From contig JAGNQV010000001.1 in the NCBI GenBank assembly GCA_017988885.1, positions 1-56,180 on the forward strand: a DNA stretch of 56,180 nt, read 5' to 3'. This document shows, piece after piece, positions 238-52,142 of this stretch. Within the stretch, counting starts at the first letter, position 1. Each line of letters opens with the position of its first letter. The notes below the pieces were generated by a model. The model ran no database searches, had not been told where the DNA came from, and saw nothing but the letters and a program-made list of their open reading frames with translations. Source of the DNA: Opitutaceae bacterium. GTDB taxonomy: Bacteria; Verrucomicrobiota; Verrucomicrobiia; Opitutales; Opitutaceae. A program made the position numbers and the translations under genes.

Positions 238-252
238 ACATTAGCCTGATTG

Positions 253-618
253 ATGGAAAACAACCCGCTGCACGCCCGTCTGATAGAGGATGCCCGCCGA
301 TACAACCCAGCGGAGCACACCGGCGGCCTGCTCGCTCCCTACCGGGACGTGTTACTGCTCTGGCGGGCCAAATACATGAGCTACGAGCAGATCGCCGCGA
401 CCTTGACCCGGCATGGGCTCAAGGTGTCGTCCGCGGCCGTCGGCATCTTCTGCCGGCGCACTTACACCAAAGGGGAGATTCTCCGGGAGCGGCAGCGGAC
501 AGAAAGCGGGGCCGGTCCCAAGCCGGTCACTGCCGCCACGATCCTCACTCTCACGCCAGCGACTATTCCCGCCGTCCCCGGCAAACGCGGGCCTAAGATC
601 GCACGAGACAACTACTGA
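253..618 (+). CDS. small helix-turn-helix DNA-binding protein (possible partition adaptor or regulator)
   Basis: ORF 250..618; the TTG at 250 is immediately followed by ATG at 253. HTH-like segment SYEQIAATLTRHGLKVSSAAVGIF. Stop lies 5 nt before the ParA-like gene. Confidence 0.6.
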   Translation: MENNPLHARLIEDARRYNPAEHTGGLLAPYRDVLLLWRAKYMSYEQIAATLTRHGLKVSSAAVGIFCRRTYTKGEILRERQRTESGAGPKPVTAATILTLTPATIPAVPGKRGPKIARDNY

Positions 619-623
619 AACCC

Positions 624-1331
624 ATGAACCCACCGACCAAACGCATCATTCTTTTTCCTCAGGACAAGGGCGGCATCGGCAAAAGCTTTGTCGCCACCCT
701 CCTTCATGACCACCTCATCGAGGAGGGAGTCACCGTCAAAGCCTTCGATCTGGATCACGCGAATTCTACGTTTCAAAGACTGGTCCCCGAAGCCGAGTTC
801 ATCGACACCGACGTGGACCCCAACAAATTAGGCACCCTCGACCGCATCATTCACGCCTTGAGCGAAGCGGACGTAGTCCTTGTGGACAATCGCGCTTCGG
901 GCGGCAGCAAGGTGCTCGCCTACATGGACGAAACTCAACTACCGGAACTGCAGGCCCAATTCGACTGCCTATTGGTATTTGTGGTGATCGCCACCGACGA
1001 CAAGGACGCCAACTCCCAGATCGCCGAGCTCCTCGATAGCCACGGCGAGCGTGTCCGCTGGCTGGTGGTCCGCAATTTCCGCGACGGTCCGAATCTGAAC
1101 CTCTTTGGTCAGAGCAATGCCCGAAAACGGCTGAGTGAGCTCAAAGCCGTCGAAATCGACCTGCCATGTCTCGCCGAAGTGACCCGCAATCAATTGCAGA
1201 CGGCAAACCTGACGGTCGGCAAGGGCCGCACTGCCACGCCGCTTCACCTGCTGGACCGCTCGCGGTGTATCCGCTTCCACACGCACATGGCAGGGGAACT
1301 CGCGAAAGCGCGGGAATTGCTCGTCGCATGA
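624..1331 (+). CDS. ParA/MinD-family ATPase (VirC1/partition-like)
   Basis: Deviant Walker A FPQDKGGIGKS near the N-terminus, size 235 aa, ATGA overlap with the next gene. Confidence 0.8.
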   Translation: MNPPTKRIILFPQDKGGIGKSFVATLLHDHLIEEGVTVKAFDLDHANSTFQRLVPEAEFIDTDVDPNKLGTLDRIIHALSEADVVLVDNRASGGSKVLAYMDETQLPELQAQFDCLLVFVVIATDDKDANSQIAELLDSHGERVRWLVVRNFRDGPNLNLFGQSNARKRLSELKAVEIDLPCLAEVTRNQLQTANLTVGKGRTATPLHLLDRSRCIRFHTHMAGELAKARELLVA

Positions 1332-1801
1332 AACCAGAGGAACTGCTCGACCCTGCGACGATGCCGGACGACCTGCAATGGGTGGTCACGCACTACCGCC
1401 TACAGCCCAATGACCCGGTATTCCTGCTCATTGCGTGGCACTGGAATCGGATGCAAGCGTGCGAGGACACCGTCAAGCTGGCCATCGTGGAGCTCAAAAG
1501 CGTCCTCGATGCCCGAGTTGAATCCTTGGCCGATGCGGCGGAAACCGTCACCGGAGTCAACGCAGTGCTAGCCGAGGTGCAGGCGGTATTGGAGGAAAAG
1601 CCCGCTCAATTGGCCCAACAGTTCGAAGCCGAGTTGAAACAACCCGTCGCCCATGCCGTCAGCCAGCTACAGGCCCTGGAAAAGTCGCTGGCACCGCTCG
1701 CGCGTAGTTTTCAAACGGCCCAGCGTCGGCAACTGCTCGCAGCGTTGTTAGTCGGCGTCGCGCTTGGCGTCCTGTCGGCGGTTATCGTGCTGCTGGCGTG
1801 A
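1328..1801 (+). CDS. coiled-coil protein with a C-terminal transmembrane anchor, function unknown
   Basis: ATG at 1328 overlaps the ParA stop (ATGA). Heptad-rich central region and hydrophobic tail LLAALLVGVALGVLSAVIVLLA. The 5' part of track ORF 1166..1801 overlaps ParA and is discounted. Confidence 0.55.
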   Translation: MKPEELLDPATMPDDLQWVVTHYRLQPNDPVFLLIAWHWNRMQACEDTVKLAIVELKSVLDARVESLADAAETVTGVNAVLAEVQAVLEEKPAQLAQQFEAELKQPVAHAVSQLQALEKSLAPLARSFQTAQRRQLLAALLVGVALGVLSAVIVLLA

Positions 1802-3270
1802 AGGCCCGCACGGTCAGCTTGGCCGGGACGTGCTTCGCCGGGGCTTTGCTGGCGAAGGTCGGCATCGCGGCTCCGGTGGGCTACTGGCTGTCTCTGGCGG
1901 CAGCATCGGTCGGAGTGTGGCTGGCGTATTGTGCGCTGGTCGAGGTCCTCGGAAATCAGACCGGCATCGTGCTCCGGCTATGGGGGCTGACATGGACTCG
2001 AGACGAGGCCTGTTGCCATTTCTTTATCACGGGGGCAACGGGCACGGGTAAAACCGCCCGGGCAGTCGTGCCGATTATCCACGGTTTGCGCTCAACTTTA
2101 CCGGATACGGGGATCCTCGCGATCGACTCCAAAGGTGCGCTCTGGAAGCCAATGGCCGCTATCGCACAAGCCCTTGGCCAAGAGGAAAACCTTCGGCTCA
2201 TCCGCGTGCGGCCGACGCATATCCCCCGCCCCAAATGGACCCCATCAATCCGGCTCAACGTTCTTGGTGACCTTACAGTCCCATGGAGCACGTATGCCAA
2301 AATCATCGTCGATACGGCCACCGCCGCCGGTCAGCGCGGCGGCCAAGCCTTTTTTAAGGAGACTGCCCGTGATACCATCACTCATGCGATGCATGCTTTG
2401 GAGGTAGCCGATCTGCCAGTGACCCTTTCCAATATTCACAACGTGATTTGCATTTCGTCGGACACGGCATTGCTGCTTGGGCGATTGGCCGAGACCAAAG
2501 GGGCCACAGCTGAAATTGAACGCCAGTATTTCAAGGACTTCGCTGCTCAACCACCGGAACAGAAAGGTGGCACCATCTCAACCGTCGCCAATTTCCTCCG
2601 CCCCTACACGCCTCCAGATATCAGTGACGTCTTCTGCTCTACGCAGCCAAATTTCACGCTCAGCGAGGTCGATGCCGGCCGACTCATCTGCCTGTCCATT
2701 CCCCAGACCTATCAAGTCGAGCGGCGATACTTAAACCTTCTCTGCAAGCAGCTGTTTTTCCTTCACGCCTTCCGTCGCTTCGATTTGGAACCAGCAGAAA
2801 TGCGGCAGCGTAACGTCATCGCCCTCGTGCTCGATGAGGGTCAGAAAACCACCCTCGTATCCGAGGATGGTTTTTCCGATCACGCCACGGTGGATGAACT
2901 ACGCGAAGCCGGCGTCTGCCTCATTTCGGCGACACAGACCCCCCTTTCACTCTACGCCTCCTTTGAAACCGAACGAAAGGCCGACGTATTCATGGCCAAT
3001 CTTCGCACGCAGATACACTTTCGAGCCGCCGACGAGAAAGGCGCCAAGATCATCTCCGATAAAATGGGCGGCCGCGAAATTCGTAAATACAGCGGAGGCG
3101 TCAGCCATGGTCGCACCTCGCGAAACTGGCAGTTAGCAGATGAACCGTGGTTCAAGTCGGCAGCGTTACTTTCAATGAAAGCAGGAAAAGCTGTGGTGAA
3201 ACATCCCCACAAAACCGGGCGACCATTTCTCAAGACGCTCTCATATACATGCTTTACTGGCGATCGGTAG
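1798..3270 (+). CDS. virD4: type IV coupling protein (VirD4/TraG/TraD family ATPase)
   Basis: N-terminal TM helices, Walker A FFITGATGTGKT, Walker B ALVLDEGQ, and the SATQTP...LRTQIHFRAAD motif block typical of T4CPs. GTG start overlaps the upstream stop (GTGA). Confidence 0.8.
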   Translation: MKARTVSLAGTCFAGALLAKVGIAAPVGYWLSLAAASVGVWLAYCALVEVLGNQTGIVLRLWGLTWTRDEACCHFFITGATGTGKTARAVVPIIHGLRSTLPDTGILAIDSKGALWKPMAAIAQALGQEENLRLIRVRPTHIPRPKWTPSIRLNVLGDLTVPWSTYAKIIVDTATAAGQRGGQAFFKETARDTITHAMHALEVADLPVTLSNIHNVICISSDTALLLGRLAETKGATAEIERQYFKDFAAQPPEQKGGTISTVANFLRPYTPPDISDVFCSTQPNFTLSEVDAGRLICLSIPQTYQVERRYLNLLCKQLFFLHAFRRFDLEPAEMRQRNVIALVLDEGQKTTLVSEDGFSDHATVDELREAGVCLISATQTPLSLYASFETERKADVFMANLRTQIHFRAADEKGAKIISDKMGGREIRKYSGGVSHGRTSRNWQLADEPWFKSAALLSMKAGKAVVKHPHKTGRPFLKTLSYTCFTGDR

Positions 3271-3342
3271 CGTCTCTGAGGTGCGGTAAGAATCACCAGA
3301 ATTCGCTTTCCGCATTCGCCGGAAACCACATCCTTCACGCTC

Positions 3343-4863
3343 GTGCCGACTTCCTCCACGCCCCGTCCGTTCGGGTCCGCCGCCGCCTTACGCCCGCCCG
3401 CCAAGCAGTATTCGTTGCACCCACTGGAACGCACCCTCGCCGGCATCGTCATCGCCTTGCTGGTGTTCCTGCCCTGGGCGCTGGGTGGGATGAGACTCTG
3501 GGGCCAGTGGATCGCCCTCGCCCTCGCCACCCTCGCCTTCGTCGTCGCACTCATTCCGAGAAACTACACCGAACGTCACCATGCCAGCGGCCACCTGCGG
3601 CTCTACATGTTTCCGAAATTATACAAGTTCCCGCTATTCTGGCTGGGGCTCATTTACTTCGCGCTGATCGTTTGCCAGATTCTCAACCCAGCGTGGACCT
3701 ATCGCTCGTCCAGCGCCGGTTGGTGGCTGGAAGCCATCGACTATATCAAATGGCTCCCGCACGGACTCGAAGGCACGCCCTTCAAAGTCATGAACGGCTG
3801 GCGCACCCTGATGATCCACGGCACCGCCTGGCTGATGGTCTGCGCCTTGTGGATCGGTATCACGCGACGACGCGCGCTTCTCGTCTTACTCATTACGCTG
3901 GCTTGCAATGCCGTGTTGCTCGGCTGTCTAGCCATCGCCCAGCGCGTAACTGGCACCGATGCCATTTTCTGGTCGGTTCCTTCGTCCAACATCATCTGGG
4001 GCACTTTCTTTTACCGGAACCACGCTGCCGCTTGGTTCAATTTAATGGTCCCCATCACCTGCGGCCTAGCCGCTTGGTTTCAGCTGCGTGCGTTGAAGAG
4101 TTTTGCCAAGTCGAGCCCGGCGGCAGTCCTCACCTTTCTAGCGCTGTTCCTGAGCGTAATCGTGGTTGGCAGTCATTCGCGTGGCGGCGTCATCTCACTT
4201 GTCGTGTTTATCGTGACCTTTTTTGTGGCGTATGTGATCCGCCATTTAACCCTGCCAGCATATCCCAGGCGCAGACTCGTCATAGGCGTGCTTGGCGTCC
4301 TTTTCTGCTTTTTTGCCGTCCAAGGCCTGCGCGAACTCAACGCCAAGGAAACGTGGTCGCGTTTCGACGATATCCTTAAAGGTAATGATGAATCTGTCTT
4401 ATCACGCCGGTTGGCGACCCGCGCCACATTCGACATGTGGCAGGACGATCCTTGGCTAGGCCATGGTGCTGGTGGCTATCGTTTCCTCTTCCCGCTCTAT
4501 CAACAGCAATATCCTGCGATCTGGGCGGAAAAACGATGGGACAACAAAACCAAGACTACAAAATATGATGGCCGGCGGCTTTTGTGGGAAAACGCCCATA
4601 ATGACCCGGTTCAAGCCCTTGCCGAACTGGGTATCTTGGGCGTGGGCTTGCTCACTGCTGGTGGCATTTGGTGGTTGGTTGCAGCAATCCAGCGCGGGGT
4701 CTTCACCAATCTCATGGGGCTCTCCCTGTCGTTCGGTCTCGCCGCCATTCTTGCCCATTCTTGGGGCGAATTCGTGTTCCACTGTCCTGCGATCCTGCTC
4801 ACTTGGCTCGCTCTGCTTACTATCACTCTCCTCTGGTGTGAACGTGACGGCGTCCGTCGCTAA
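3343..4863 (+). CDS. O-antigen ligase / polymerase family membrane protein (Wzy_C domain)
   Basis: Polytopic membrane protein with an SHSRGG motif and ENAHNDPVQALAELGILGVGLL (the Wzy_C signature H-N...E.G). GTG start at 3343 is uncertain. Confidence 0.7.
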   Translation: MPTSSTPRPFGSAAALRPPAKQYSLHPLERTLAGIVIALLVFLPWALGGMRLWGQWIALALATLAFVVALIPRNYTERHHASGHLRLYMFPKLYKFPLFWLGLIYFALIVCQILNPAWTYRSSSAGWWLEAIDYIKWLPHGLEGTPFKVMNGWRTLMIHGTAWLMVCALWIGITRRRALLVLLITLACNAVLLGCLAIAQRVTGTDAIFWSVPSSNIIWGTFFYRNHAAAWFNLMVPITCGLAAWFQLRALKSFAKSSPAAVLTFLALFLSVIVVGSHSRGGVISLVVFIVTFFVAYVIRHLTLPAYPRRRLVIGVLGVLFCFFAVQGLRELNAKETWSRFDDILKGNDESVLSRRLATRATFDMWQDDPWLGHGAGGYRFLFPLYQQQYPAIWAEKRWDNKTKTTKYDGRRLLWENAHNDPVQALAELGILGVGLLTAGGIWWLVAAIQRGVFTNLMGLSLSFGLAAILAHSWGEFVFHCPAILLTWLALLTITLLWCERDGVRR

Positions 4864-4878
4864 TCCCCCACCCTTCGC

Positions 4879-6744
4879 TCAATCGAGGAAGGGTGTATAT
4901 TCAGGAACGAAAGTCTTAATCATTTTTTTGACATCCATCGCTTCCATTTTGTAGAGACCTTGCTCGATGGTGGTTAGCGTGTCCTCCGAGAGTTCACTCT
5001 CATCACGCACCGTAAAACGCATAATGCGTGGGTGCGCGGTGAGGGTGTGCTTTTCCCCGTGATGCTGCAACTCTTCATAGAGTTTTTCGCCCGGTTTCAG
5101 TCCCGTGAACTGGATTTCAATATCCTCGCCGGCCTTCAAGCCGCTGAGCTCGATCATCTGCCGCGCCAGATCCACGATTTTCACCGACTGGCCCATATCG
5201 AGCACCAAGATATCCCCGCTCCGGCCCAACACCGCACTTTGTAGCACCAATCCCACCGCCTCAGGAATGGTCATGAAAAAGCGCGTGACCTCGGGATGCG
5301 TTACCGTAACCGGGCCACCGCGCTCGATCTGTTCTCGAAAAATCGGAATCACGCTACCCGAGGAACCCAGCACATTACCAAAGCGCACGGCTACAAACCG
5401 GGTCGACCCAGTTTGCCGGGCCGCGAGCCGCTGCAGTTCCAGTTCGGCCAATCGCTTTGAAGCGCCCATCACACTGGTCGGGTTGATCGCTTTGTCCGTG
5501 GAGATAAGCACAAAGGTCTGACTGCCAAAAGCCAGCGCCAGTTCTCCCAGCCGCCGAGTGCCCAACGCATTATTGTGCACGGCTTCGGCCGGTTGCCGCT
5601 CCATCATGAACACGTGCTTGTGCGCCGCCGCATGGAAAATGATCTCGGGGCGGTAACGCTCGAAAATCTGCCGCATGCGCGTTTCATCGAGAATATTAGC
5701 CACCAGCGGAATCGCGTTAGAGGCCGAGCCCAGATCCGCCAGTTGACGCTCCGCTAGGAAAAGACTGCCTTCCGATCGCTCAACCATCAGTAGCCGCTTG
5801 GGGTTGTTCGTGGCTATCTGCCGGCACAGTTCGCTGCCGATGCTGCCGCCGGCACCCGTGACCATGACCACCTTGTTTTCGACCAGTGCCCGGATTGCGG
5901 CCGAATCGAGCTCCACCTGTTCACGGCCCAACAAATCCTCAATTTGCACGGGGCGGATGCGATTTGCTTTCACGCGGCCGGACGCCAACTCCTCCAAAGA
6001 AGGCATGGTTTCCACCGGCAACCCCAAAGCCGTCATGTGTCGGACGATTTCTCGCACTCGCTTGCCCGACGCTGTCGGCATCGCGATGACGACTTTGCTG
6101 ATATTGAAACGTCCACGTAGTCCCTCCACTTCGTCCGGCCGACCCGCGACCATCACGCCATGGATAAGTTTACCTCGCTTATCCGGATCATCGTCAAGGA
6201 AGAGCACTGGGCGAAAGCCCCGGGCCGGAGACCCAAGAAAATCTCGGGCCAAGGCCGCACCGGCATCTCCCGCGCCAACAATAGCCAGATCGGCCTTCAC
6301 TTGCGCACCCATCCGTCTGGCCATGACAAAACGCTCGCGGTAGATACGAGCCCCAAGGCGCAGCAGACAAAGTCCGGCCACACTGAGCACAAAATCGATT
6401 AACAGCACCCCGCGTGGCACTAAAATCAGAGAACTGTCGATCGGCCTGATCAACATTAGCAGTGCCACCGCTATCGCCATAGCTAGCCCAATTCTACCGA
6501 GATCAGGCACACTAAAGTAAGTGACCATGGTATCCAGCTGCCGCATCCAAAGCAGCATCAGCAATTTAACCCCCACCACGACAACCAGCGCCAATATCCG
6601 GCCAGTTTGAAAATTCCCCGGCACGAGGAAGTCGAAGCGAAACTCATACGCCAGATACAGGCTCATGATCAGCACGACCGCATAAGCACCCGCTAGGGTG
6701 AGGATGCGGCGGAATTTACTGAGATCCCAAAATGCTGTTCCCAT
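4879..6744 (-). CDS. membrane-anchored UDP-sugar 4,6-dehydratase (CapD/WbpM/PglF family)
   Basis: Four N-terminal TM helices followed by Rossmann motifs IVGAGDAG and VTGAGGSIGSEL. 621 aa, typical of the family. Confidence 0.85.
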   Translation of the reverse strand: MGTAFWDLSKFRRILTLAGAYAVVLIMSLYLAYEFRFDFLVPGNFQTGRILALVVVVGVKLLMLLWMRQLDTMVTYFSVPDLGRIGLAMAIAVALLMLIRPIDSSLILVPRGVLLIDFVLSVAGLCLLRLGARIYRERFVMARRMGAQVKADLAIVGAGDAGAALARDFLGSPARGFRPVLFLDDDPDKRGKLIHGVMVAGRPDEVEGLRGRFNISKVVIAMPTASGKRVREIVRHMTALGLPVETMPSLEELASGRVKANRIRPVQIEDLLGREQVELDSAAIRALVENKVVMVTGAGGSIGSELCRQIATNNPKRLLMVERSEGSLFLAERQLADLGSASNAIPLVANILDETRMRQIFERYRPEIIFHAAAHKHVFMMERQPAEAVHNNALGTRRLGELALAFGSQTFVLISTDKAINPTSVMGASKRLAELELQRLAARQTGSTRFVAVRFGNVLGSSGSVIPIFREQIERGGPVTVTHPEVTRFFMTIPEAVGLVLQSAVLGRSGDILVLDMGQSVKIVDLARQMIELSGLKAGEDIEIQFTGLKPGEKLYEELQHHGEKHTLTAHPRIMRFTVRDESELSEDTLTTIEQGLYKMEAMDVKKMIKTFVPEYTPFLD

Positions 6745-6756
6745 GATATTAAGTCT

Positions 6757-7362
6757 CTAGGTCTTGGGCTGGAATTCCGGCATCGTGGCCTCACCTTGGG
6801 CGCTGATACCCTCGCGACGGAATACTTTCACCACTGTTTCAAAAAGTATGCCGCAGTCCATCTGCAAAGTTCTCGTTTCGATATAGCGCACATCCCAGTC
6901 AAATTTCTCCTCCCAGGTTAACGTATTGCGCCCTCGCACTTGGGCCAGACCCGTCAATCCCGGCGGCACTTCATGTCGGCGTGCCTGCCGCTTTGAATAG
7001 CGCGGCAAATACTCCACCAAGAGTGGTCTCGGCCCGACCAAGCTCATTTCTCCGCCCAAGATATTCAGCAACTCGGGCAATTCGTCGAGCGAGCTCGCGC
7101 GCAACCAACGCCCAAACGCCGTCAATCTCTCGCTATCGGGCAGTAATCGCCCATCTTCATCAGCCGCATTCCGCATCGTTCGAAATTTGATCAGTTCAAA
7201 AATTTCCCCGCGCAAACCCGGCCGACGTTGCCGAAAAAAAACCGGCCGGCCCAGATTGGCCCAGACCAGCAGCGCCACACCCAACAGCAAGGGCAGCCAC
7301 AGCGGCATCGTCAGGACCACCACAATGAAATCAAAGATACGTTTCAGGCGAAGGCTTCGCAT
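6757..7362 (-). CDS. undecaprenyl-phosphate sugar phosphotransferase (small PglC/WbaP-C-type initiating transferase)
   Basis: KRIFDFIVVVL...RPVFFRQRRPG..G..F...KFRTM and DELPQL-like DELPELLNIL..MSLVGPRP motifs. Confidence 0.85.
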   Translation of the reverse strand: MRSLRLKRIFDFIVVVLTMPLWLPLLLGVALLVWANLGRPVFFRQRRPGLRGEIFELIKFRTMRNAADEDGRLLPDSERLTAFGRWLRASSLDELPELLNILGGEMSLVGPRPLLVEYLPRYSKRQARRHEVPPGLTGLAQVRGRNTLTWEEKFDWDVRYIETRTLQMDCGILFETVVKVFRREGISAQGEATMPEFQPKT

Positions 7363-7389
7363 GGGATTACTTCAAAAATAGGTCGCGCA

Positions 7390-8517: not shown

Positions 8518-8664
8518 GGAGCTTTCCACTATGCTTTGGACCATGATCTTAATCAAGGAACTTACACCCTATTGGGCGTTTTCTCCTGCAAACGATTCCG
8601 GTTCGTAATCACGCCCTAGTGAATCCCAATCACTGGGAGGAAGATCGCTCAGCAAACTTCATCT

Positions 8665-10836: not shown

Positions 10837-10873
10837 TGTGCCTGCTTTGCAAACCGCAACAACCGATCAGGCA

Positions 10874-34439: not shown

Positions 34440-34576
34440 AGTGCCTTAAGCAAAAATGCCTGTGCTGCGACCAATACCATCACGGCTTCGCCCCGTCGCT
34501 TCTTATATTGGAGCAATTGAGGTGGATCTTAATTTTTTGCCGCATATGCAGTCACCGGCGCTGCACCAGTAACCTG

Positions 34577-36352: not shown

Positions 36353-36369
36353 AAATCTTAGAGCGAACC

Positions 36370-38687: not shown

Positions 38688-38705
38688 TAAAAATACACTC
38701 TATAG
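38674..38705. promoter_or_regulatory. perfect 8-bp inverted repeat CTATAGAG-N16-CTCTATAG in the divergent integrase/XRE intergenic region (candidate operator)
   Basis: Read directly. AT-rich 16-nt spacer GGTCAATAAAAATACA. Lies between the likely integrase ATG (38639) and the likely XRE GTG (38744). Confidence 0.5.
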
Positions 38706-38743
38706 ATGGTAGATGTTCACCCATCGCCCCGCTAGTCTGGGCC

Positions 38744-41000: not shown

Positions 41001-41030
41001 TGTAAGAAATAGTGCCCTGTTTTTCTTACA
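41001..41030. promoter_or_regulatory. 9-bp inverted repeat TGTAAGAAA-N12-TTTCTTACA immediately upstream of the AbiEi ATG (candidate autoregulatory operator)
   Basis: Read directly. It ends 8 nt before the ATG at 41039. Confidence 0.5.
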
Positions 41031-41038
41031 AGAATGCT

Positions 41039-44168: not shown

Positions 44169-44477
44169 ATGATGATTTTCCCCCTGCTTCCTGCCCTCCG
44201 GGTCAAGGCCGCGATGCTGACCAAGGGCACGACCGTCCTGGCCCAGCTTCAGCAGCTGCGCGAAGGCTTCGGCAGTGCCCTCGTGCTGATCTTCATGGTC
44301 GGGTTTTTCTGGGGGATCATCAAAATCTGGTCCGGGGCCAACGCCATCAGCAAGGGCGATAGCGAAGGCAAGGGCGGGATCCTCGCCGGGATCATCATTG
44401 CGGCAGCTGCATCCATCATGGGAGCGCTCTTCGCCATCTTCGGCATGCAGGATGCGGTCGTAACCCCGCGGTTTTGA
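44169..44477 (+). CDS. TrbC/VirB2-like pilin candidate
   Basis: About 100 aa with two hydrophobic helices (ALVLIFMVGFFWGIIKIW and GILAGIIIAAAASIMGALFAIFG) separated by a short charged loop. First gene of the T4SS operon. Start could be an internal Met. Confidence 0.55.
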   Translation: MMIFPLLPALRVKAAMLTKGTTVLAQLQQLREGFGSALVLIFMVGFFWGIIKIWSGANAISKGDSEGKGGILAGIIIAAAASIMGALFAIFGMQDAVVTPRF

Positions 44478-44485
44478 GGAAAACC

Positions 44486-47401
44486 ATGAACGAACTGCGC
44501 TTCACCGACACCAACGCGGCCGATGACTCATCCGGCCGGGTTTTTGGCCTCGACGGTAATCTCTATCTGCCGCTGGTGATCGGGGCCGTGACGGCGATCG
44601 GGCTGTTTGCCGGTCTGGCGTTTCTCGGCGCAGGATATGGGACCGCAGCCTGGGGCGGAATTGCTCCCTTGGCCGGACTTTCCGTATGGGTTTTGGGATT
44701 CAGGCACGGCAAGCCACGCGGGTATGACCGCGACCGCTTAGATATGCTCATGGGCGGGAGTAACGGGTCGCCCGCTTCCGTTTCCGAGACGCACGGCAAG
44801 ACCCATGACGGACCACCCGATGGCCGATTCGTCCATGGCTTCATTCTTTTCGGGTCGCCCGAACGAGGCGGAGTCGCGGCCAAGGGCTTCAGGTTGGAAC
44901 CGCCGGACCTGCGTGGCGCGAGCATCACCCGGCTAAACGCCTTTCAGGATCAGGTGCGCGCACTGCTCGCCTTGGTCGGGCCGGGGCGGCGGGTGCAGTT
45001 CCAATGGTCTTGTGATTCGGACTACCGGGATGAATTGCTCCGCTACCATGAGCACACCCAGACGGCGTCCAATCCTGAGGTCCGGCGGGTGCGGAACGAA
45101 CGGTTCACCCGCTACTGGCAGCGCATGGCGGCACGGCAGCTGCGGCGCGAACGACTGACCCTGTTTCTCTCCATCGAAATCACCACCTACGCCGGCAACC
45201 TCCGCCTCCGCGACGGGCTCGAAGGCCACTACGAAATCCTGTTCCGCGAACTGGCGGCCCAATTCGAGGAATTCGCGACCACGCTGCGGAGCGTGTTCGG
45301 GTCCGAGACGGCCGTCACCCCGCTCGACGCGGCCGGGCATTGTGCCTGTCTGAGGCGATTCCTCAATCCGGGGCTCGCGGCGCAGACTCAGCATGATCGC
45401 GCTGACCAGTTCGACCCGAGCATGAGTGTGCAGGAGAACTGCTGGCACAGCGAAAGCCTCGGCCAAGCTGACGGTGGGTTTCATCTGGACGGCCACTATC
45501 ACGCGGTCCTCGCGCTGTCCCGCTGGCCGCAGCGGACTCGGCCCGGAATCGTCACGCATCTGACCGGCCTTCCGTTCTTGGACTACAGCCTCTCAGTCAA
45601 CGTCACCCCCGTCGCCACGCGGACCGAAATCGGCCGCGAGGAACGCGCGGCCGAACGCCTGCGCGGTGAATACTCCGAAAAGCCCCGCGCTTCCCTGCTC
45701 GTGGCACTCAGAAAAAAGGAGCGCAAAGTTGAGCAGTTGTCCGGCGGGTTCGCCCGGCCGTTTCATGTCACGTATCTGCTGCGGATGTGGGCGCCAACCA
45801 AGGAAGCGTTGCGCGAAAAAGTCGCAGCCGTGCAGGCCGCAATTCATGCGATGGACGGAGCGCAATACCTCGAATGTTCGTTGCCGACGACGGCACAGAA
45901 GTTGTTCTTCGCCTCATGGCCGGGCTGGACGCATTCCTCCTACCGGCACCGCGAGCTTTACGCCGAGGATGCGTATCTGGCGGACATGCTCCCGTTCTCG
46001 GCGACCTTCACCGGGGCGCTGACCGAGGCCGAGGCGCTTTACGATGGCAGCCACGGCAACCTGGTCGGCGTTTCAACGCAGGCCGGCGGTTCGCCGCAAC
46101 ATGCGGTGCTCTTTGGCATGACCGGCGCCGGCAAGTCCGCCTTCGTCGAGGATCTGCTTTGGCAGACTGCGGCGGACTTCGACTACACGTTGATTGCGGA
46201 GGAGGGATTTTCTTACAAACGGTTCACGGAGAGCATGGGTGAAACTCCGATCATCGTTCATCCCGATGCGGCCCTCACCCTTAACTATCTCGATACCCAG
46301 CGGCTGCCACTTTCGCAGCTCCATCTAGCAACGGCGGTCGCGTTGCTCGCCCGGATGGCGGGGCAACCGGATCGAGCCGAACAACTGGCCCTGCGACAGG
46401 CCCAGCTCACCCAATATCTCCACCAACTCTACCGTGATACCTATGTGGATTGGTCGCGGCGTCGGCCCGAAGCGGCCGAGCAGGCCCGGCGGCTCGCGTG
46501 TGCCACACACCAGTGGCGGAGCAAACTTCCGGCGGGAGCCACGCCGCTGGATATATATTGCGACCTGCGCGACCGGTTGGCTCGCAACGAGGATGAAGCA
46601 TCCGGTTTTGTCGCCGGATTATCCGAGGAAACCATCACGCGGTTCGCCCAGGCACCGGAGACGGAACGGCTCGTGGCCCATACCGCATGCGCCTTTTTCG
46701 CCCCGGAGGATTATCCGACGCACAGTGCATTGGTCGAACTGCTGGCCTACGGCCGGTTTCCAGAGCACAGCAAGGACGAGATCGACCGGCTCGCAACCTT
46801 GCTCCGCGCCTGGAGCGTCGAGGGCCAATACGGTCGGCTGTTCGACGGCGTGACCAACATTGCCCTGAACCGGCGGATTGCTCACTTCGAGTTGGGCTCA
46901 ATTCCCGAGCAGGCCGTCGAACTCAAGGCCGCCGTCGGGCTCCTCATCAGCGGGCTGGGCCGGCAGCACATCCTCGCCCTCCCCCGTGCTAGCAGAAAAC
47001 GCATCCTCTTCGAAGAACTGTCACGCTTCCTCGATACCCCGGGCGGCGAACAGATCGTGGCGGAAGGTTACGCCCAGTTGCGGAAACACAACTGCTGGTG
47101 CGCCTCGATCATCCAGCAGTATTCACGGTTCAAGACCTCGCGTATCCGCAGTGCGGTGATCGGCAACGCGAAGCAGTTCTTCTTCATGCGGCAGGCCGAC
47201 CGGGCTGATCTGGCCGACCTCGCCACGGATCTGCCGCTGCCAGAAACCGCGCTCGATGCCATCCAGCGGTATCCGTTGCCCGAGCAATTGCCCGACAATG
47301 GCCGGTATTCCTCGCTTTGTTATTTTGCGCCTACGACGCAACCGCCGCAATGCGGCACGATTCGCCACATCCAGCAAAAAAAGGAACGCCATGCGGCCTA
47401 G
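44486..47401 (+). CDS. virB4: VirB3-VirB4 (TrbD-TrbE) fusion, conjugal transfer ATPase
   Basis: GAGGA 5 nt before ATG 44486. N-terminal ~90 aa with two TM helices (VirB3-like). Walker A LFGMTGAGKS and Walker-B-like RILFEELSRFLD. About 970 aa. Confidence 0.8.
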   Translation: MNELRFTDTNAADDSSGRVFGLDGNLYLPLVIGAVTAIGLFAGLAFLGAGYGTAAWGGIAPLAGLSVWVLGFRHGKPRGYDRDRLDMLMGGSNGSPASVSETHGKTHDGPPDGRFVHGFILFGSPERGGVAAKGFRLEPPDLRGASITRLNAFQDQVRALLALVGPGRRVQFQWSCDSDYRDELLRYHEHTQTASNPEVRRVRNERFTRYWQRMAARQLRRERLTLFLSIEITTYAGNLRLRDGLEGHYEILFRELAAQFEEFATTLRSVFGSETAVTPLDAAGHCACLRRFLNPGLAAQTQHDRADQFDPSMSVQENCWHSESLGQADGGFHLDGHYHAVLALSRWPQRTRPGIVTHLTGLPFLDYSLSVNVTPVATRTEIGREERAAERLRGEYSEKPRASLLVALRKKERKVEQLSGGFARPFHVTYLLRMWAPTKEALREKVAAVQAAIHAMDGAQYLECSLPTTAQKLFFASWPGWTHSSYRHRELYAEDAYLADMLPFSATFTGALTEAEALYDGSHGNLVGVSTQAGGSPQHAVLFGMTGAGKSAFVEDLLWQTAADFDYTLIAEEGFSYKRFTESMGETPIIVHPDAALTLNYLDTQRLPLSQLHLATAVALLARMAGQPDRAEQLALRQAQLTQYLHQLYRDTYVDWSRRRPEAAEQARRLACATHQWRSKLPAGATPLDIYCDLRDRLARNEDEASGFVAGLSEETITRFAQAPETERLVAHTACAFFAPEDYPTHSALVELLAYGRFPEHSKDEIDRLATLLRAWSVEGQYGRLFDGVTNIALNRRIAHFELGSIPEQAVELKAAVGLLISGLGRQHILALPRASRKRILFEELSRFLDTPGGEQIVAEGYAQLRKHNCWCASIIQQYSRFKTSRIRSAVIGNAKQFFFMRQADRADLADLATDLPLPETALDAIQRYPLPEQLPDNGRYSSLCYFAPTTQPPQCGTIRHIQQKKERHAA

Positions 47402-47576
47402 CCTCCTCTTTTGCGCGCTGTTTTTGCTGGCCGGCTGTGCATCGCAAAAACGCGAACCGGATGCCGAGGCCCGCGCCTACGAGCGCGGCTACCGGCAGGC
47501 CCTGAAGGAGCAATACTGGATCATCCAAAACCAGCAGCGGACCGCCACGGCCGCGCCCAACCCGAAAACCCCATGA
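47391..47576 (+). CDS. small lipoprotein (VirB7-like candidate)
   Basis: MRPSLLFCALFLLAGC lipobox, 61 aa. Overlaps the VirB4 end. ATGA overlap with the next gene. Confidence 0.55.
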   Translation: MRPSLLFCALFLLAGCASQKREPDAEARAYERGYRQALKEQYWIIQNQQRTATAAPNPKTP

Positions 47577-48382
47577 AACACTTTATCCTATTTCTCCTGC
47601 TGTCCGTCCCGTTGTGCGCTCAACTCATCGTCAGCGATCCCATCAACACCGCGGTCAACTCCGCCGTGCAAGCCGGTCAGGCCGCCAACCACCTTGAAGT
47701 TCTCCGGCAGTGGTCCGCGCAGCTTGAAAACTTACACCGGCAGCTTCGTCAACTTGAGGAGCAGCTGGCCGTGCAGCGGCGCATCCGGGATGTCATTGGC
47801 GATCCCCAATCCGCCGGTGCGCAAATCCTGCTCCACGATTTGGGCATGGACAATCTCGCCCGCACGTATGGCGAGACGCTCCAATCCGCCCGCCAGTTGG
47901 CCAGCGCCATCGAGTCGCTCCGACGCACTTCCGATGGAATCTACCGGGAAATCGACGACCGCACCGTGCTGGGCCGCGAGTTCGCGCGCAATGAACCTCT
48001 CTACCGGCGTTATGCCGTGGTGGAACGACAGGCAGACAATCTGGCCGACGTGCACGCCGCGACCGCAACGCGCACCCAAGCCTTGCAGGCCGACCTTGCG
48101 CGCACGCTCGAACGGCTGCGGGCTGCAACCACCCAAGCCGAGACCGACAAATTGAATGCGACCATCGCCGCCCTCAACGGCCAGCTGGCCCACCTGGATG
48201 CGCAGCGGCGTAGCGAAACCGATAAACTCTGGGCCGCACATATCCTCAATGAAAACCAGGCTGCCAAGGAGCAGCAGGATTTGCTGGAGAAACAACAGGC
48301 CGAGGAGCGCGACTCCCTGGGCGCGTTCAATGCGTGGCAGCGTTCACTCGCCCTCACGCCCACCGACTACACCCGGCCATGA
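47573..48382 (+). CDS. TrbJ/VirB5-like protein
   Basis: Signal peptide MKHFILFLLLSVPLCAQ, then IVSDPINTAVNSAVQAGQAANHLEVLRQW..QLENL..QL.QLEEQL, the TrbJ/VirB5 N-terminal motif. Coiled-coil rich. Confidence 0.65.
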   Translation: MKHFILFLLLSVPLCAQLIVSDPINTAVNSAVQAGQAANHLEVLRQWSAQLENLHRQLRQLEEQLAVQRRIRDVIGDPQSAGAQILLHDLGMDNLARTYGETLQSARQLASAIESLRRTSDGIYREIDDRTVLGREFARNEPLYRRYAVVERQADNLADVHAATATRTQALQADLARTLERLRAATTQAETDKLNATIAALNGQLAHLDAQRRSETDKLWAAHILNENQAAKEQQDLLEKQQAEERDSLGAFNAWQRSLALTPTDYTRP

Positions 48383-48645
48383 GGCATCGGCGCATGTTTT
48401 CTCTTTTGCTCATCGCCGGGCTCGCCGTCTGCGGCTTGCTCGTTCGCCGCCACGTGGTGCGCCACGCTGTGCCCGCTCCACTGGAAGACACCGAAGCCCG
48501 CCAGTTACGGGCCATCAATGATTGGCAGCGCGGTCTTCGGCTCGATTCGCGCACCGACTATGGAAGGAAACCCGCCGATCTCGTCCCAATGGATAAACTG
48601 CAGAGGGAAGAACGCCGGCAGCGGCCGGAGGAGCAAAGAAACTGA
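48379..48645 (+). CDS. small membrane-anchored protein in the TrbK (entry-exclusion) position
   Basis: ATG 48379 with ATGA overlap. MFSLLLIAGLAVCGLLV hydrophobic N-terminus, 88 aa. Assignment is positional only. Confidence 0.4.
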   Translation: MRHRRMFSLLLIAGLAVCGLLVRRHVVRHAVPAPLEDTEARQLRAINDWQRGLRLDSRTDYGRKPADLVPMDKLQREERRQRPEEQRN

Positions 48646-49700
48646 TGGAAAACTTTGCCCCAGGTCTGCGCGAGGCCGTCCTCGGTCTCACCAACTCGCT
48701 CCGTGTGATCGTGTTTTTCGTCTGCGTGCTCGGCTTGATGCTGCACCTCCAGCAGGCGCGCGGTGACATCGAGAGCCTCACTCGGCCGCTGTTGCGCGCT
48801 ACCGTGATCGTAGCGTTGCTCGCCACCCTGCCGCATTGGTTCGGATTCACGGAACGAATCTTCCTGTCGATCGCCGATACGGTGCACGCGGGTTACACTC
48901 AGCATCCGATGGAGACCGCCGCAAAAATGCGGGCTGCGGTCGCCGACGGCGGGAGCGACTTCAGCCTGCGGCGGGTCGGGGAATCAGTCTATCAGGCGCT
49001 GTTGTGGGCAGCGGCCAAGCTCATCGTCCTGAACGCGAGCCTGCTGCAACTGCCGTTCCTGTTGCTCCAGTTCATCCTGAAACTGCTCTGCTACCTGTTC
49101 CTGCCCGTGGCGCTGGGTCTCTTCATGATTCCCGCACTGAGCCAATTAGCCACCCGCTACATCCAGCAGACGCTCGCCGTGCTGGCGTGGCCGGTCGGCT
49201 TCGCCGTGACCGAGTTGGTCGCCTATCACCTGCTCACCGCCTACCTGCAAAACCAAGCCGTCCTTTACGGGCTGCAACCGGGTGAAATCAACGCGGCCTC
49301 CTTTGCCAGCGTATTGGGCGCCTTGCTCGCCTCGCTGTGGCTTATCATCGGCACCATCGGAACACCGTTCCTCATGCAGGGATTGATCTGCTCGGGCGCA
49401 CCGATGTCGGGCGGCGGGCAGACGGCGATGCAGCAGCTCTACGCGGTTCAGCAAATCGCGTTCATGCTCAAATCCCTCAAGACCGCGGGGGCCGCTGCGC
49501 CGGTCATGGCCGCCCAAGCCACCTCGAAGGCGGGTGGTTCGATGCCACCACCCCCTCCACCTTCGCAGGCGTCTCCGCCGCCGCCGGGACCAGCCACTCC
49601 ACCTGCTGCACCAGCCGGCCACGCCGACCCAACCGGCGATCACACCGCCGCCGTCGCCATCTCCTCCTTCCAACTGCCCGTCGCCCAAAGGGGCATTTGA
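48645..49700 (+). CDS. TrbL/VirB6-like polytopic membrane protein with a proline-rich tail
   Basis: 5-6 TM helices, position after the TrbJ/K-like genes, C-terminal MPPPPPPSQASPPPPGPATPPAAPAG. Confidence 0.65.
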   Translation: MENFAPGLREAVLGLTNSLRVIVFFVCVLGLMLHLQQARGDIESLTRPLLRATVIVALLATLPHWFGFTERIFLSIADTVHAGYTQHPMETAAKMRAAVADGGSDFSLRRVGESVYQALLWAAAKLIVLNASLLQLPFLLLQFILKLLCYLFLPVALGLFMIPALSQLATRYIQQTLAVLAWPVGFAVTELVAYHLLTAYLQNQAVLYGLQPGEINAASFASVLGALLASLWLIIGTIGTPFLMQGLICSGAPMSGGGQTAMQQLYAVQQIAFMLKSLKTAGAAAPVMAAQATSKAGGSMPPPPPPSQASPPPPGPATPPAAPAGHADPTGDHTAAVAISSFQLPVAQRGI

Positions 49701-49711
49701 TCAGCCCAGCT

Positions 49712-50368
49712 ATGACGACTCTCCGTGAATCCTCCGTGCCGCATGCACGGCCAACACCAAGCCAGCGCGCGCGCCGGGCCTGGCACCCATTCGAATTCTT
49801 TGCCGACCACGCCTTGGCCGCGCGGTTGTGGTGTCTCGTTGCAGTGGTCGCCGTTGGGTTCTGCGCCGTGCAGCCCTTCCTCATCATCCGGGCCTACCGG
49901 ACGAAGGAACGGGTGGTCATTCTCGACGCGGCCGGAACGTTCCATGTCAGCCCACTCCTCGGTTTCGAGGAAGCGGCCAAACTGCACGAGCAACACGCCC
50001 TCCTCGCGTGTCTCGCGCTCTTCCAGCGCAATCCGGCAGGTTTCGATTTTCCCGAACTGCTCGACAAACTCTTTCTGCCGGAGGCGGCGCGCCAGGCTCG
50101 CGCCGGGGCCGCCACTGAGGCGGAGGAGTTCTCGGCCAAGGCGCTCCACCAGAAACCCGAAATCCTGAAACTGACCGTCTTGGAAACCCGCGAGCAGCTC
50201 GTGCTCGTGCAGGCCGAGGGTCAGCTGATCCGCACCGGGATCGTCAACGGGCAGACTTTTACCGAGGCCCCCGCCTTCACCGCGCGACTCACGTTCGCGC
50301 GCAACCCCAACCTGGCCGGCAGCGGCCGTTTTCCTCTCGCCGTATGGACCTACGAATTATCGCAATGA
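49712..50368 (+). CDS. TrbF/VirB8-like bitopic protein
   Basis: ATG 49712 in the frame of track ORF 49337..50368. One TM (LWCLVAVVAVGFCAVQPFLII) followed by a ~150-aa periplasmic domain. Synteny between the B6-like and B9-like genes. Confidence 0.55.
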   Translation: MTTLRESSVPHARPTPSQRARRAWHPFEFFADHALAARLWCLVAVVAVGFCAVQPFLIIRAYRTKERVVILDAAGTFHVSPLLGFEEAAKLHEQHALLACLALFQRNPAGFDFPELLDKLFLPEAARQARAGAATEAEEFSAKALHQKPEILKLTVLETREQLVLVQAEGQLIRTGIVNGQTFTEAPAFTARLTFARNPNLAGSGRFPLAVWTYELSQ

Positions 50369-51153
50369 TCATGCTGCAGGCGTTGCTGATCGCTGGGGTC
50401 GATGCCTCGCAGATCCGGGCCTATCCGCTCGACGATCGCAGCGTTTACACCATCCGGCTCGGCAAGGATGAGCCGACCACCTGTGTTTTTCCGGCCGCAA
50501 TCAAGGCGATGGTCGGCGCCAATGTTTCAACCAAGGCGGACGATGCCCCGGGCATCCTGTTGTCCCACGAACCGGGCACGGAATATTTTTCGTTACGGGC
50601 GCTCAAGGCGGACGCCACCGGAGCATTGAATGTGGTGCACCGGGGCCGGGTCTACGCCCTCGTGTTTATCACGGGCGACAATCCCGACCAGGCCGTCATA
50701 TTCCTGAACGAGCCGCTGGTCGGAGCCACCCGCGAACTGCCGGCCGCTGACACCTTGCGCGCCCTGCTGGAACGGGCGAAGCAACTGGACCGGTTGCAAA
50801 ATCAGTATCCCGGCATGGCCTCGAAGATTGATCGGGCGCAGCCCGGCACGGTCACTTACTACCGCGCCTTCACCGCCACGGTTGAGGACGTTGTGAGATT
50901 CGATGCCGAGGACGTGCTCGTGCTCCGCGTGCGGTTGGCAAACACGCTCGATGTGCCGGTGCCTTACGATCCGCAGGCGCTGGCCGTGCGCGTCGGCCAC
51001 GACGTTTACACCGCCGCGCTGACCGAAGCCTCGGGCTCAATTCCGCCGCAGTCGGCGACCCAGCTCTATCTGGTCATCGCGGGAATCCCCGGACGCGGAC
51101 GCGCCAACCTCTCCGTGCGTGAAATTTTTAACGTCATCGTGCCGCACCCATGA
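50344..51153 (+). CDS. TrbG/VirB9-like protein
   Basis: Signal peptide, then VYTIRLGKDEPTTCVFPAAIKAM...YFSLRALKADATGALNVV..GRVYALVF pattern of the VirB9/CagX N-domain. An alternative ATG at 50365 forms an ATGA overlap. Confidence 0.6.
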   Translation: MDLRIIAMIMLQALLIAGVDASQIRAYPLDDRSVYTIRLGKDEPTTCVFPAAIKAMVGANVSTKADDAPGILLSHEPGTEYFSLRALKADATGALNVVHRGRVYALVFITGDNPDQAVIFLNEPLVGATRELPAADTLRALLERAKQLDRLQNQYPGMASKIDRAQPGTVTYYRAFTATVEDVVRFDAEDVLVLRVRLANTLDVPVPYDPQALAVRVGHDVYTAALTEASGSIPPQSATQLYLVIAGIPGRGRANLSVREIFNVIVPHP

Positions 51154-52142
51154 CTTTCAACCGCGATTTTTTCACATCCCACACCGGACAGGTCGTGCTC
51201 GTGGCCGCCGTGCTGCTGCTCGGGATTCTCGCCGTGCGCTGGCAGAATGAAAAACGCACCCCTGTCCCGCTGCCGGCAGCGAAATCAGCGCCTTCGGTCG
51301 CCTTGCCCAAGACCCTCACGCGCGAGATAACGCGTTACAAGACCCCACCGCCAGTCCCGGCAAAAGCAGCCGCGCACGGAGTCACGTCCAGCCCACCGGC
51401 GGTCGCGACCATTCCTGCCACGCAAGCGCTGCCGCTGGCACTCTTAACCGCTGGCGCAGAGTCTTCGCCCGTGGCACCTCGCCCGCCGGTCGCACCCTTC
51501 GGTCGCTTGATCCCCTGCGAAACCGTGATCGCCTTGGAATCGAACCGACTGGAAACACCCGTCATCGGCCTAGTGACCCAAGATGTCTGGCATGATGGCC
51601 GCCTCATCATCCCGGCGGGAGCGGAAGTTCACGCCCGGGCCGCGCTCGACCGCACCCGGGAAAGGCTCGCCGTGCAGGGTCCGTGGAAAATTGTGTGGCG
51701 AACACCCGATGCCGATAATGGCGCGGAGCTTTCCGTCGATGGACTCGCCCTCGACCGTGACTATGCGGCTGACACGGGCACCTGGGGACCGAACGACGGT
51801 TCGGCCGGGTTGCGTGGGCAGATCGTCAAGGCGGACGACGACCGCGAATTAAAACTCTTGGCCGCCACGTTTCTCGGCTCGGCCACAGCCGCTTTGCAAG
51901 ACACCCGCCTGACGACCGGCCTTTTGGGCGAAGCCTCTCTGCCGACCGCCAGCGCCCGCAACGCGGCGCTCTCCGGCACGAGTGCCGTGCTGCGCGAGTA
52001 TGCCCAAGCCATGCGCGACTCAATTGCCCGTGACGGATTCTTCCTCCGCGTGCCCGCCGGCAAACCTTTTTACCTCTACGTGACGCAAACCCTCGATCTA
52101 GCCCAAGCCAGCCGGCCCGGCACCGCATCCTCCCGCCTATGA
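51150..52142 (+). CDS. virB10: TrbI/VirB10-like protein
   Basis: N-terminal TM, Pro-rich linker, and C-terminal block LIPCETVIALESNRLETPVIGLVTQDVW.DGRLIIPAGAEVHA...GLRGQI, typical of VirB10. ATGA overlaps on both sides. Confidence 0.7.
   Translation: MTFNRDFFTSHTGQVVLVAAVLLLGILAVRWQNEKRTPVPLPAAKSAPSVALPKTLTREITRYKTPPPVPAKAAAHGVTSSPPAVATIPATQALPLALLTAGAESSPVAPRPPVAPFGRLIPCETVIALESNRLETPVIGLVTQDVWHDGRLIIPAGAEVHARAALDRTRERLAVQGPWKIVWRTPDADNGAELSVDGLALDRDYAADTGTWGPNDGSAGLRGQIVKADDDRELKLLAATFLGSATAALQDTRLTTGLLGEASLPTASARNAALSGTSAVLREYAQAMRDSIARDGFFLRVPAGKPFYLYVTQTLDLAQASRPGTASSRL

Follow-up and report, generated by a model that had tools for sequence, protein, structure and literature searches.

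A surface-glycan island with three tyrosine-recombinase-like genes, probably nested in an integrative and conjugative element of Opitutaceae

Introduction

How does a long locus for making a surface glycan come to lie between two groups of conjugation genes, and could it travel with them? The question is raised by the 56,180-bp contig JAGNQV010000001.1 of an Opitutaceae bacterium (assembly GCA_017988885.1). The window, by which we mean the whole stretch of DNA that was analyzed, is this entire contig, and its genes were mapped from an open reading frame (ORF) listing together with Pfam and NCBIfam scans. A sequence-only reading of the window had offered two answers. Either the whole is one element with the glycan locus as conjugative cargo, or a recombinase-borne glycan island inserted into, and possibly inactivated, an older integrative and conjugative element (ICE). 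Since relatives have a single backbone and an island-free slot, both answers appear to be true, one nested within the other. Our reading, to which we give a probability of about 0.75, is that the contig is a large part of one ICE and that the first cargo slot of this ICE holds a nested glycan island with three recombinase genes, similar in layout to the GInt islands compared at the end of this text. Surface glycans determine phage susceptibility, grazing resistance, floc and biofilm behavior, and host interaction.

Conjugation modules and backbone

The window was compared by tblastn with neighborhoods of relatives (L002-L007) and with 78 further loci from a scan of GTDB species genomes. The 78 loci, mostly from Opitutaceae metagenome-assembled genomes (MAGs) and genomes, share one backbone family. 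On its left, the backbone consists of an SNF2-like helicase gene, two small genes, and TrwC on the minus strand, followed by genes for a 122-aa protein, ParA, a protein here called p157, and the type IV coupling protein (T4CP) on the plus strand. The middle is made up of a variable slot, a small ORF and an AraC gene on the minus strand, and a second variable slot. On the right, genes for a ClpB-like protein and a 155-aa protein (p155) on the minus strand precede a gene for a 102-aa protein with two transmembrane (TM) segments and the VirB4 transfer operon, both on the plus strand. The backbone proteins of the window are 58-91% identical in amino acid sequence to those of L005, L006, L007, and L010, and they occur in the same order and on the same strands.

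The T4CP and VirB4 genes lie 2.1-8.5 kb apart in 15 of the 51 relatives with enough downstream flank, and 11 loci in this comparison showed no backbone marker inside 10 kb. In CAZUQB010000002.1, 34 kb of unrelated cargo lies between the modules, with genes for a DEAD helicase and RecA as well as TonB-receptor/FecR/sigma genes. The gap between T4CP and transfer operon in the window is 40.9 kb. Since the same gene order recurs in relatives, the glycan locus can be regarded as cargo of one element, as one of the two earlier answers had it. The comparison supports the view that both conjugation modules belong to a single conserved ICE backbone, each forming one half of it.

A coupling protein, a VirB4-class ATPase, and mating-pair genes, which belong to the components of an ICE, are all present in the window. 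Two family members lie in the chromosome OZ257259.1 (8.86 Mb), and others in Termitidicoccus mucosus CP109796.1 and a 3.77-Mb contig of Oleiharenicola lentus; together with Geminisphaera colitermitum TAV2, the last two make up the three cultured species in which the family was found. The chromosomal location, the frequent occurrence of several copies per genome, and the shared gene order therefore indicate an ICE family with variable slots between the T4CP and ClpB-like genes. No description of ICEs in Opitutaceae turned up in a literature search. The family is common in Opitutaceae, has a fixed cargo slot, and is so far undescribed.

The same evidence bears on whether the contig could be part of a conjugative plasmid rather than an integrated element. 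A ParA gene and iterons adjoin the relaxase gene, the contig has no backbone integrase and no chromosomal flank, and Opitutaceae plasmids exist. Close family members, however, are embedded in chromosomes of 3.8-8.9 Mb, where several copies are common. The VirB4 homologs on the TAV5 and Termitidicoccus plasmids are only about 30% identical and therefore belong to a different system. We consider a plasmid very unlikely. No backbone integrase was seen in relatives within the fetched 10-kb flanks, and the presence of an ICE integrase is presumed.

Several genomes hold two or three copies of the family (for example L030/L037 and L021/L052), and in CAYYGV010000004.1 two copies are separated by about 7 kb and point their helicase ends toward one another.

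The sequence-only reading had named a relaxase as a gene to be looked for. Positions 1..26 on the minus strand encode 8 codons, MCRLGHSR, and the remainder of the gene is off the contig. This N-terminus is identical to that of the gene called TrwC in L005, and window 1-3155 aligns with L005 8199-11358. Because the contig begins with the first codons of the called TrwC gene, it ends at the start of the relaxase gene, and the true start codon may sit further left than the window edge. TrwC is located upstream on the minus strand in 52 of the 56 relatives with enough flank. From this synteny, a full relaxase gene adjoining the window is strongly expected; the contig includes the first codons of the gene as called, and the gene body lies outside it.

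Insertion of the island

The GInt-like island occupies 3259..39125, has no strand of its own, and measures 35.8 kb. It contains a Wzy_C gene, a glycan operon, three recombinase paralogs, and an XRE gene, and it is absent from the closest empty-slot relatives. In L005 (85% T4CP identity) and L010 (82%), no more than about 150 bp separates the T4CP gene from the small ORF and the AraC gene; L010 reaches VirB4 3.9 kb after T4CP, and L005 11706-13142 corresponds to window 39126-40561. The left breakpoint is at about 3258, four codons ahead of the T4CP stop. The right breakpoint is at about 39126-39166, within the 3' end of the convergent small gene p118. Relative to L005 and L010, the block from the Wzy_C gene to the XRE gene is thus one insertion with the recombinase trio at one end, which is what the second of the earlier answers had described. 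These two relatives have the backbone without the island, and L001, an NCBI metagenome contig, carries the glycan locus attached to T4CP; a glycan locus at this place without conjugation genes was not seen among the related genomes.

GC content is 60-64% in the backbone and 50-57% in the island. Within the glycan operon, which is otherwise at 50-53% GC, a block at 13.2-17.9 kb reaches 61-66% GC and includes an NTP_transf_5 gene, two GT4 genes, and a kinase-like gene. The GC contrast together with this internal block marks the glycan locus as foreign to the backbone and as a mosaic in its own right.

Glycan genes recur as cargo in this family. In L021, a family member in a closed chromosome, genes for DUF4838, Wzy_C, PMM, GlmS, and Polysacc_synt_2 proteins come directly after T4CP and are 39-58% identical to genes of the window. 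Termitidicoccus also has a Wzy_C gene in the same slot after T4CP.

Assembly integrity and environmental occurrence

The junction between T4CP and the island is spanned by Logan contigs that each come from a single run (X1 3118-3474 and X4 3137-3467), and the right junction is spanned without mismatch by an X1 Logan contig (37974-40528). Logan depth is similar over backbone and cargo. L001, which is independent of the window, is identical to it from about 1700 to 7811. Given independent contigs across it, the T4CP-island junction is solid, and the contig is not chimeric at the island junctions. Sequence of the right junction region is present in about 20 public runs; these belong to 12 studies, which sampled wastewater, activated sludge, and freshwater.

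These data also speak to the idea that the modules come from two decayed elements, or that a chimeric assembly has placed them around a chromosomal glycan locus. The sequence-only reading had allowed for the first case. The difference in GC between backbone and cargo would fit such an origin, as would the left 1.7 kb, where the window and L001 differ. In many relatives, however, the same modules are contiguous in the same order and orientation, which contradicts an origin in different elements, and single-run contigs span both junctions at even depth. We regard this explanation as extremely improbable. A contig from run X1 shows the same switch as L001, at 1564-1672. An estimate of purifying selection from L001 was rejected, since identity is 100% over the shared part and the remainder seems to be recombinant or hybrid.

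Empty-site and circular forms were looked for in assembled Logan contigs. The loose ends of Logan contigs near the junctions fit neither form, and those at 142 and 175 match other family members that co-occur in the samples. Contigs of X1, X2, and X4 match the window rightward from 38511 and have the same unrelated GC-rich sequence to the left of this position. The partner sequence is found in neither the window nor the fetched loci.

The recombinase trio and its homologs

Three genes at 34577-38687, all on the minus strand, lie between the glycan operon and the transfer module and have tyrosine-recombinase features, in agreement with their earlier annotation. The first paralog (37464..38687) is a 407-aa ORF (391 aa as called) with a match to the 5vfz integrase at 4e-6. 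The second (36370..37467, 365 aa) has the residues R, K, R, and Y aligned. The third (34577..36352, 591 aa) keeps R, R, and Y, has no Lys, and carries a fused C-terminal winged-helix domain of MarR/GbsR-like type (1ku9, 1e-9). The paralogs are 29-30% identical to one another, and the trio is separated from the glycan operon by 137 nt. Divergent from the trio is an XRE-type helix-turn-helix (HTH) regulator gene at 38624..38971 on the plus strand (HTH_3 3.5e-15).

The assignment to tyrosine recombinases draws on several lines of evidence. The trio has no Pfam match at E <= 0.001 and weak XerD and XerA matches in NCBIfam. The 407-aa protein has 36 detectable homologs among 5.8 billion proteins, the best at 45% identity, and its remote homologs carry PF00589. 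In an alignment of homologs and paralogs, Arg, Arg, and Tyr are invariant and Lys nearly so at the active-site positions of tyrosine recombinases; Asn stands in place of both active-site His residues. The 5vfz match was obtained with a profile of the family (4e-6) and is to the structure of the Brujita integrase. In an AlphaFold model of the 407-aa recombinase, the top fold matches are all tyrosine recombinases and the core-binding domain superposes at about 2 Å. The confidence of the model is low (pLDDT 62.6) and the fold matches are therefore only supportive. A metagenome scan with the narrow trio alignment gave 12 loci, mostly short, and a tblastn search of the plasmid database PLSDB with the 407-aa protein found no trio homolog.

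The linkage of the trio with glycan genes is seen in other loci as well. In L087, a divergent XRE gene is followed by a response-regulator-like gene, three paralogs, wHTH-like (winged-HTH) small genes, and a co-oriented polysaccharide locus with epimerase, UDP-sugar dehydrogenase, flippase, GT (glycosyltransferase), and NeuB/CMP-sugar genes. L089 has an XRE gene, four paralog-like ORFs, and a wHTH gene, then an ABC-transporter-type O-antigen locus with a Wzt_C domain, and the AbiE pair of the window recurs at its flank with 70% DNA identity. The divergent XRE gene is shared by L087-L090. In L087, L089, L091, and L095, the wHTH is a separate gene after the trio.

Beside the XRE end of L087, at 6393-6592, lies a 170-bp relic of the ICE backbone with 69% DNA identity. 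It consists of the last 40 VirB4 codons and the start of the next gene, and there are no other backbone genes nearby.

This linkage could mean something else, namely that the trio, XRE, and wHTH regulate or rearrange the glycan operon, as in phase or antigenic variation, and that the locus entered the ICE by other recombination. In the window, L087, and L089, the trio stands directly upstream of a glycan operon and shares its orientation; the search for att repeats found none, and the insertion came with a replacement of backbone sequence. Against a regulatory role, no inverted repeats flank a promoter or any segment, and in L094 and L098 the trio occurs without glycan genes. The position at the island end, with co-transcription into the cargo, is also the exact layout of a GInt. 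We judge such a role to be distinctly unlikely and favor the nested island, in which the trio would have carried the glycan genes into the slot.

Weighing the nested-island reading

A number of observations weigh against the reading given here. At the insertion, about 240 bp of L005-type sequence was replaced and not duplicated. T4CP lost about 10-13 C-terminal residues, including the conserved Asn of FTxxN, and p118 lost about 31 residues at the island edge. The replacement and the two truncations do not look like a clean site-specific event and might impair transfer. A search of the island edges and of the whole window for att-like direct repeats and terminal inverted repeats brought up nothing beyond chance, and neither a tRNA nor any Rfam family was found in the window, so that the att repeats and tRNA target named earlier as things to check are both missing from it. 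The island edges share no word longer than 9 nt, and this one falls within the XRE gene; since the nearest empty site is only 69-81% identical, short repeats could escape detection. A displaced 3' fragment of T4CP was looked for beside the XRE end and none was found. The distal end of the island is not AT-rich (54-56% GC). The trios of L094 and L098 lack the wHTH as well as glycan genes and stand with FRG, PD-(D/E)XK, Fur, and LigD genes instead. All three paralogs of the window keep the catalytic Tyr, unlike descriptions of GinC, and the likeness to GInts was drawn from architecture and published description. The contig holds no relaxase body, no ICE integrase, and no element end. Finally, L001 differs from the window at 10-25% of nucleotides over 129-1700 (the 122-aa gene, ParA, and p157), so that one contig of the pair may, at its far left end, be recombinant between ICE variants or an assembly hybrid.

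Several of these points would also suit a dead remnant, that is, an ICE in which the insertion or later decay disabled transfer so that the glycan locus is now a fixed genomic island. T4CP is without its last 13 or so codons, among them a nearly invariant Asn, p118 is shortened by about 31 codons, a toxin gene in the second slot (AbiEii, described below) is a pseudogene, and the contig does not reach the relaxase body, an integrase, or the element ends. More than 20 backbone ORFs are nevertheless intact and full length compared with relatives. The T4CP tail reads FTGDR* in the window, and FTxxN plus a variable tail in the family; past FTxxN, it varies in length and sequence, and some relatives terminate almost as early. 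The slot normally takes cargo. Recent spread is suggested by the more than 6 kb that a second assembly shares at full identity and by the occurrence of the sequence in about 20 runs, which belong to 12 studies. A dead remnant is therefore unlikely in our view, and the earlier suggestion that the insertion inactivated the ICE gains little from full-length backbone ORFs and an insertion into the normal variable region of the family. The nested island in an ICE that may still be functional remains our preferred reading.

Glycan locus

The Wzy_C gene at 3343..4863 on the plus strand encodes a membrane protein of the O-antigen ligase or polymerase class (Wzy_C 2.2e-21; 11 predicted TM segments) and follows T4CP after a 72-nt gap. 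The glycan operon, at 4879..34439 on the minus strand, covers 29.6 kb and is tightly packed, with six ATGA overlaps; one more is in the recombinase trio. Both had been described correctly from the sequence.

Among the operon's products are a small phosphoglycosyl transferase (Bac_transf 3e-58), a PglF/PseB-like 4,6-dehydratase, and two DegT/LegC-type aminotransferases. The phosphoglycosyl transferase, the dehydratase, and a LegC/PseC-type aminotransferase point to a di-N-acetyl-6-deoxy-amino-sugar primer. The genes gmd (two copies) and fcl, above or near equivalog cut-offs, together with the second DegT aminotransferase point to GDP-fucose or perosamine-type sugars. A TarF-like glycerophosphotransferase, a glycerol-3-phosphate cytidylyltransferase, and a GDPD protein are also encoded. 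The glycosyltransferases comprise two of GT4, two of GT2, and one weakly GT1-like. An MOP flippase (22991-24493, minus strand; Polysacc_synt_3 4e-60) and a 9-TM protein without a family match, which is a Wzy candidate (20531-21889, minus strand), complete the membrane components. The remaining genes encode two methyltransferases and HAD, ATP-grasp, NTP_transf_5, kinase-like, DUF4838, and EpsI-like proteins.

With an initiating transferase, a flippase, glycosyltransferases, and NDP-sugar genes present, the Wzy_C gene and the operon would amount to a Wzx/Wzy-type pathway. The locus had been called a complete O-antigen or exopolysaccharide (EPS) locus. Synthesis, flipping, and polymerase or ligase candidates bear this out. 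The export genes wza, wzc, and wzz do not: no Wzz/Wzc or Wza Pfam family was found in any window ORF scanned, and therefore the word complete covers synthesis, flipping, and polymerase or ligase candidates only, not export.

The two gmd paralogs (31370-32386 and 33417-34439), both above the equivalog cut-off, flank fcl. They form the sole sizeable repeat in the window (143 nt at 74%).

Left module

The region between the relaxase gene and the 122-aa gene (27..249, no strand) separates divergent genes. It contains a perfect 7-bp inverted repeat at 112-127 (CCTAACG tc CGTTAGG) and four CACTACT iterons with 11-bp spacing at 143-185, and CACTAC repeats stand at the equivalent position in about 30 of 60 relatives. 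This 220-bp region may be an oriT or a regulatory/partition site.

The genes that follow are all on the plus strand. The 122-aa backbone protein (250..618) is conserved in 65 loci; it had been labeled an HTH protein, and since the Pfam and NCBIfam scans gave no match for it, this label is unproven. Next is a ParA/MipZ-type ATPase (624..1331; MipZ 5e-6), conserved in 63 loci. The coiled-coil protein of the sequence-only reading is p157 (1328..1801), a 157-aa protein with a C-terminal TM segment; relatives show this length and not the 211-aa ORF from 1166. T4CP (1798..3270) is of the VirD4/TraD class (TrwB_AAD_bind 1.5e-10) and has two N-terminal TM segments. Its homologs number in the hundreds at 70-89% identity, mostly in Opitutaceae and other Verrucomicrobiota.

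Transfer operon and other genes right of the island

The small backbone gene p118 (39115..39369, minus strand) has homologs in 35 loci, and only its residues 1-68 are homologous. It is followed by the AraC-family regulator of the backbone (39557..40573, minus strand), which is 68% identical to that of L005 and 70% to that of L010. A second small cargo insert, an AbiE-type pair at 41012..42640 on the plus strand, lies between the AraC and ClpB-like genes and is absent there in L010. Its AbiEi/DUF6088 antitoxin gene (41012-41659) is intact. The AbiEii toxin gene, from 41656, is a pseudogene with in-frame stops at about 42070 and 42313 and a frame lost near 42500; an ORF at 41523-42680 was rejected as a gene because it is an out-of-frame reading of the decayed AbiEii. 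The backbone resumes on the minus strand with a 308-aa ClpB-like AAA_2/D2-small protein (42730-43656) and the 155-aa protein p155 (43635-44102). This pair is conserved and divergent from the transfer operon.

The transfer operon spans 44169..56180 on the plus strand. It starts at 44169 with the 2-TM 102-aa protein and continues with a VirB4/TraC-type ATPase (44474-47401; TraC-F-type 1.9e-27), a 61-aa protein (47391-47576), a 269-aa protein (47573-48382), a small ORF (about 48379-48645), a TrbL/VirB6-like protein (48645-49700; TrbL 5.6e-4, a weak match), a 218-aa protein (49712-50368), a 262-aa TIGR03749-like protein (50365-51153), and TrbI/VirB10 (51150-52142; TrbI 1.2e-15). The mating-pair module had been thought to end here, at 52142. 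It actually reaches the contig end, with a 222-aa protein (52139-52807), a T2SSF platform protein (52809-54011), a prepilin-like protein (54015-54968), and a Flg_new_2-like gene cut by the contig end (54965-56180+). In relatives, the operon continues with a secretin after Flg_new_2. The VirB4-type operon thus runs directly into genes like those of type IV pili and type II secretion systems (T2SS), at 52809-56180 in the window and at 18286-22916 in L006. The Flg_new_2-like gene of the window has about 215 central residues fewer than that of L006.

The coordinates given earlier for the two conjugation modules hold, and the label Trb-like that went with them is loose. All TrbE, TraC, and VirB4 matches in NCBIfam are far under their cut-offs; the TrbE models score 16-31 bits against cut-offs of 810-1322, and the best match is F-type TraC. 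Membership in the Trb group (MPF_T, IncP/Ti-type) is not indicated, as equivalog thresholds were missed and no TrbB/VirB11 ATPase was found in the window.

Discussion

We propose that the glycan island entered the ICE through the action of the tri-recombinase module, and that the island, which has no transfer genes, would ride on it. If ICE and island are active, as we infer they may be, conjugation of the ICE would give a recipient in one step the genes to make, flip, and polymerize or ligate a new surface glycan. The glycan itself would contain a di-N-acetylated 6-deoxy-amino sugar, fucose or perosamine-type sugars, and glycerol phosphate, as far as gene content predicts its chemistry. A further suggestion, which we put forward tentatively and consider possible but doubtful, is that XRE, trio, and wHTH form a dedicated shuttle for polysaccharide loci that lodges preferentially in the slot of one Opitutaceae ICE family, giving nested cassette exchange.

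If our reading is true, environmental Verrucomicrobiota, which are abundant in activated sludge and freshwater, could switch surface type by a single transfer. It would also link non-mobilizable islands of the GInt type to a conjugative vehicle, and this link would explain their spread. The three cultured carriers make conjugation experimentally approachable in the poorly tractable Verrucomicrobiota.

Comparison with known systems

GInts carry at one end the ginABCD genes, of which three are tyrosine-recombinase-like and one encodes a small helix protein (Bardaji et al. 2017, PMC5385486). Their co-oriented cargo is 2.5-70 kb long, and they have a short AT-rich far end, imperfect repeats of 10-17 nt, and insertion at gene ends; one has been reported in Opitutus terrae (PMC5385486). 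They are thought to be non-mobilizable (PMC10214605). The island of the window likewise has three tyrosine-recombinase-like genes at one end, together with a DNA-binding domain as putative fourth component, and co-oriented cargo begins right after this. Its size is near the reported GInt median of 34.9 kb, it sits at a gene end (the left edge is four codons before the T4CP stop), and it has no transfer genes of its own. It differs in that its trio has no Pfam match and both conserved His residues are replaced by Asn, in that the wHTH, its putative fourth component, forms part of the third recombinase and an extra divergent XRE gene is present, and in that it lacks flanking repeats and an AT-rich end. 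Its host site, moreover, is another mobile element.

RIT (recombinase in trio) elements are described as compact trios bounded by long inverted repeats. The window trio resembles them in having three adjacent tyrosine recombinase genes with a 4-nt overlap, and differs in being linked to a wHTH and a large cargo. An RIT element was ruled out because no inverted repeats flank 34577-38687 and the large cargo is present. RITs are named as a separate group in PMC10214605.

SPI-7 of Salmonella Typhi is an ICE-type element that carries the Vi capsule operon as cargo (PMC3864950). Glycan cargo on an ICE therefore has a precedent and is not new in itself, and in the window too a whole surface-polysaccharide locus stands in the cargo region of an ICE. 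In the SPI-7/pKLC102/PAPI-1 family of ICEs, transfer machinery is accompanied by type IV pilus genes. The backbone of the window gives only sub-threshold TIGR03749 and SXT_TraD matches, and the relaxase of its relatives is of the TrwC type. It also comes from another phylum, and its glycan locus is of the Wzx/Wzy type without export genes and lies in a nested tri-recombinase island.

The MOBF (TrwC)/VirB4 systems of R388 and F share with the window and its relatives a TrwC relaxase (seen in the relatives), a VirD4-class T4CP, VirB4/TraC, and VirB6- and VirB10-like proteins. In contrast to them, the matches of the window fall well short of family cut-offs, VirB11 was not seen in it, and the operon is extended by T2SSF, prepilin-like, and Flg_new_2 genes and, in relatives, by a secretin. 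Set beside these systems, the window is best described as part of an undescribed Opitutaceae ICE family that appears to carry a very divergent GInt-like glycan island.

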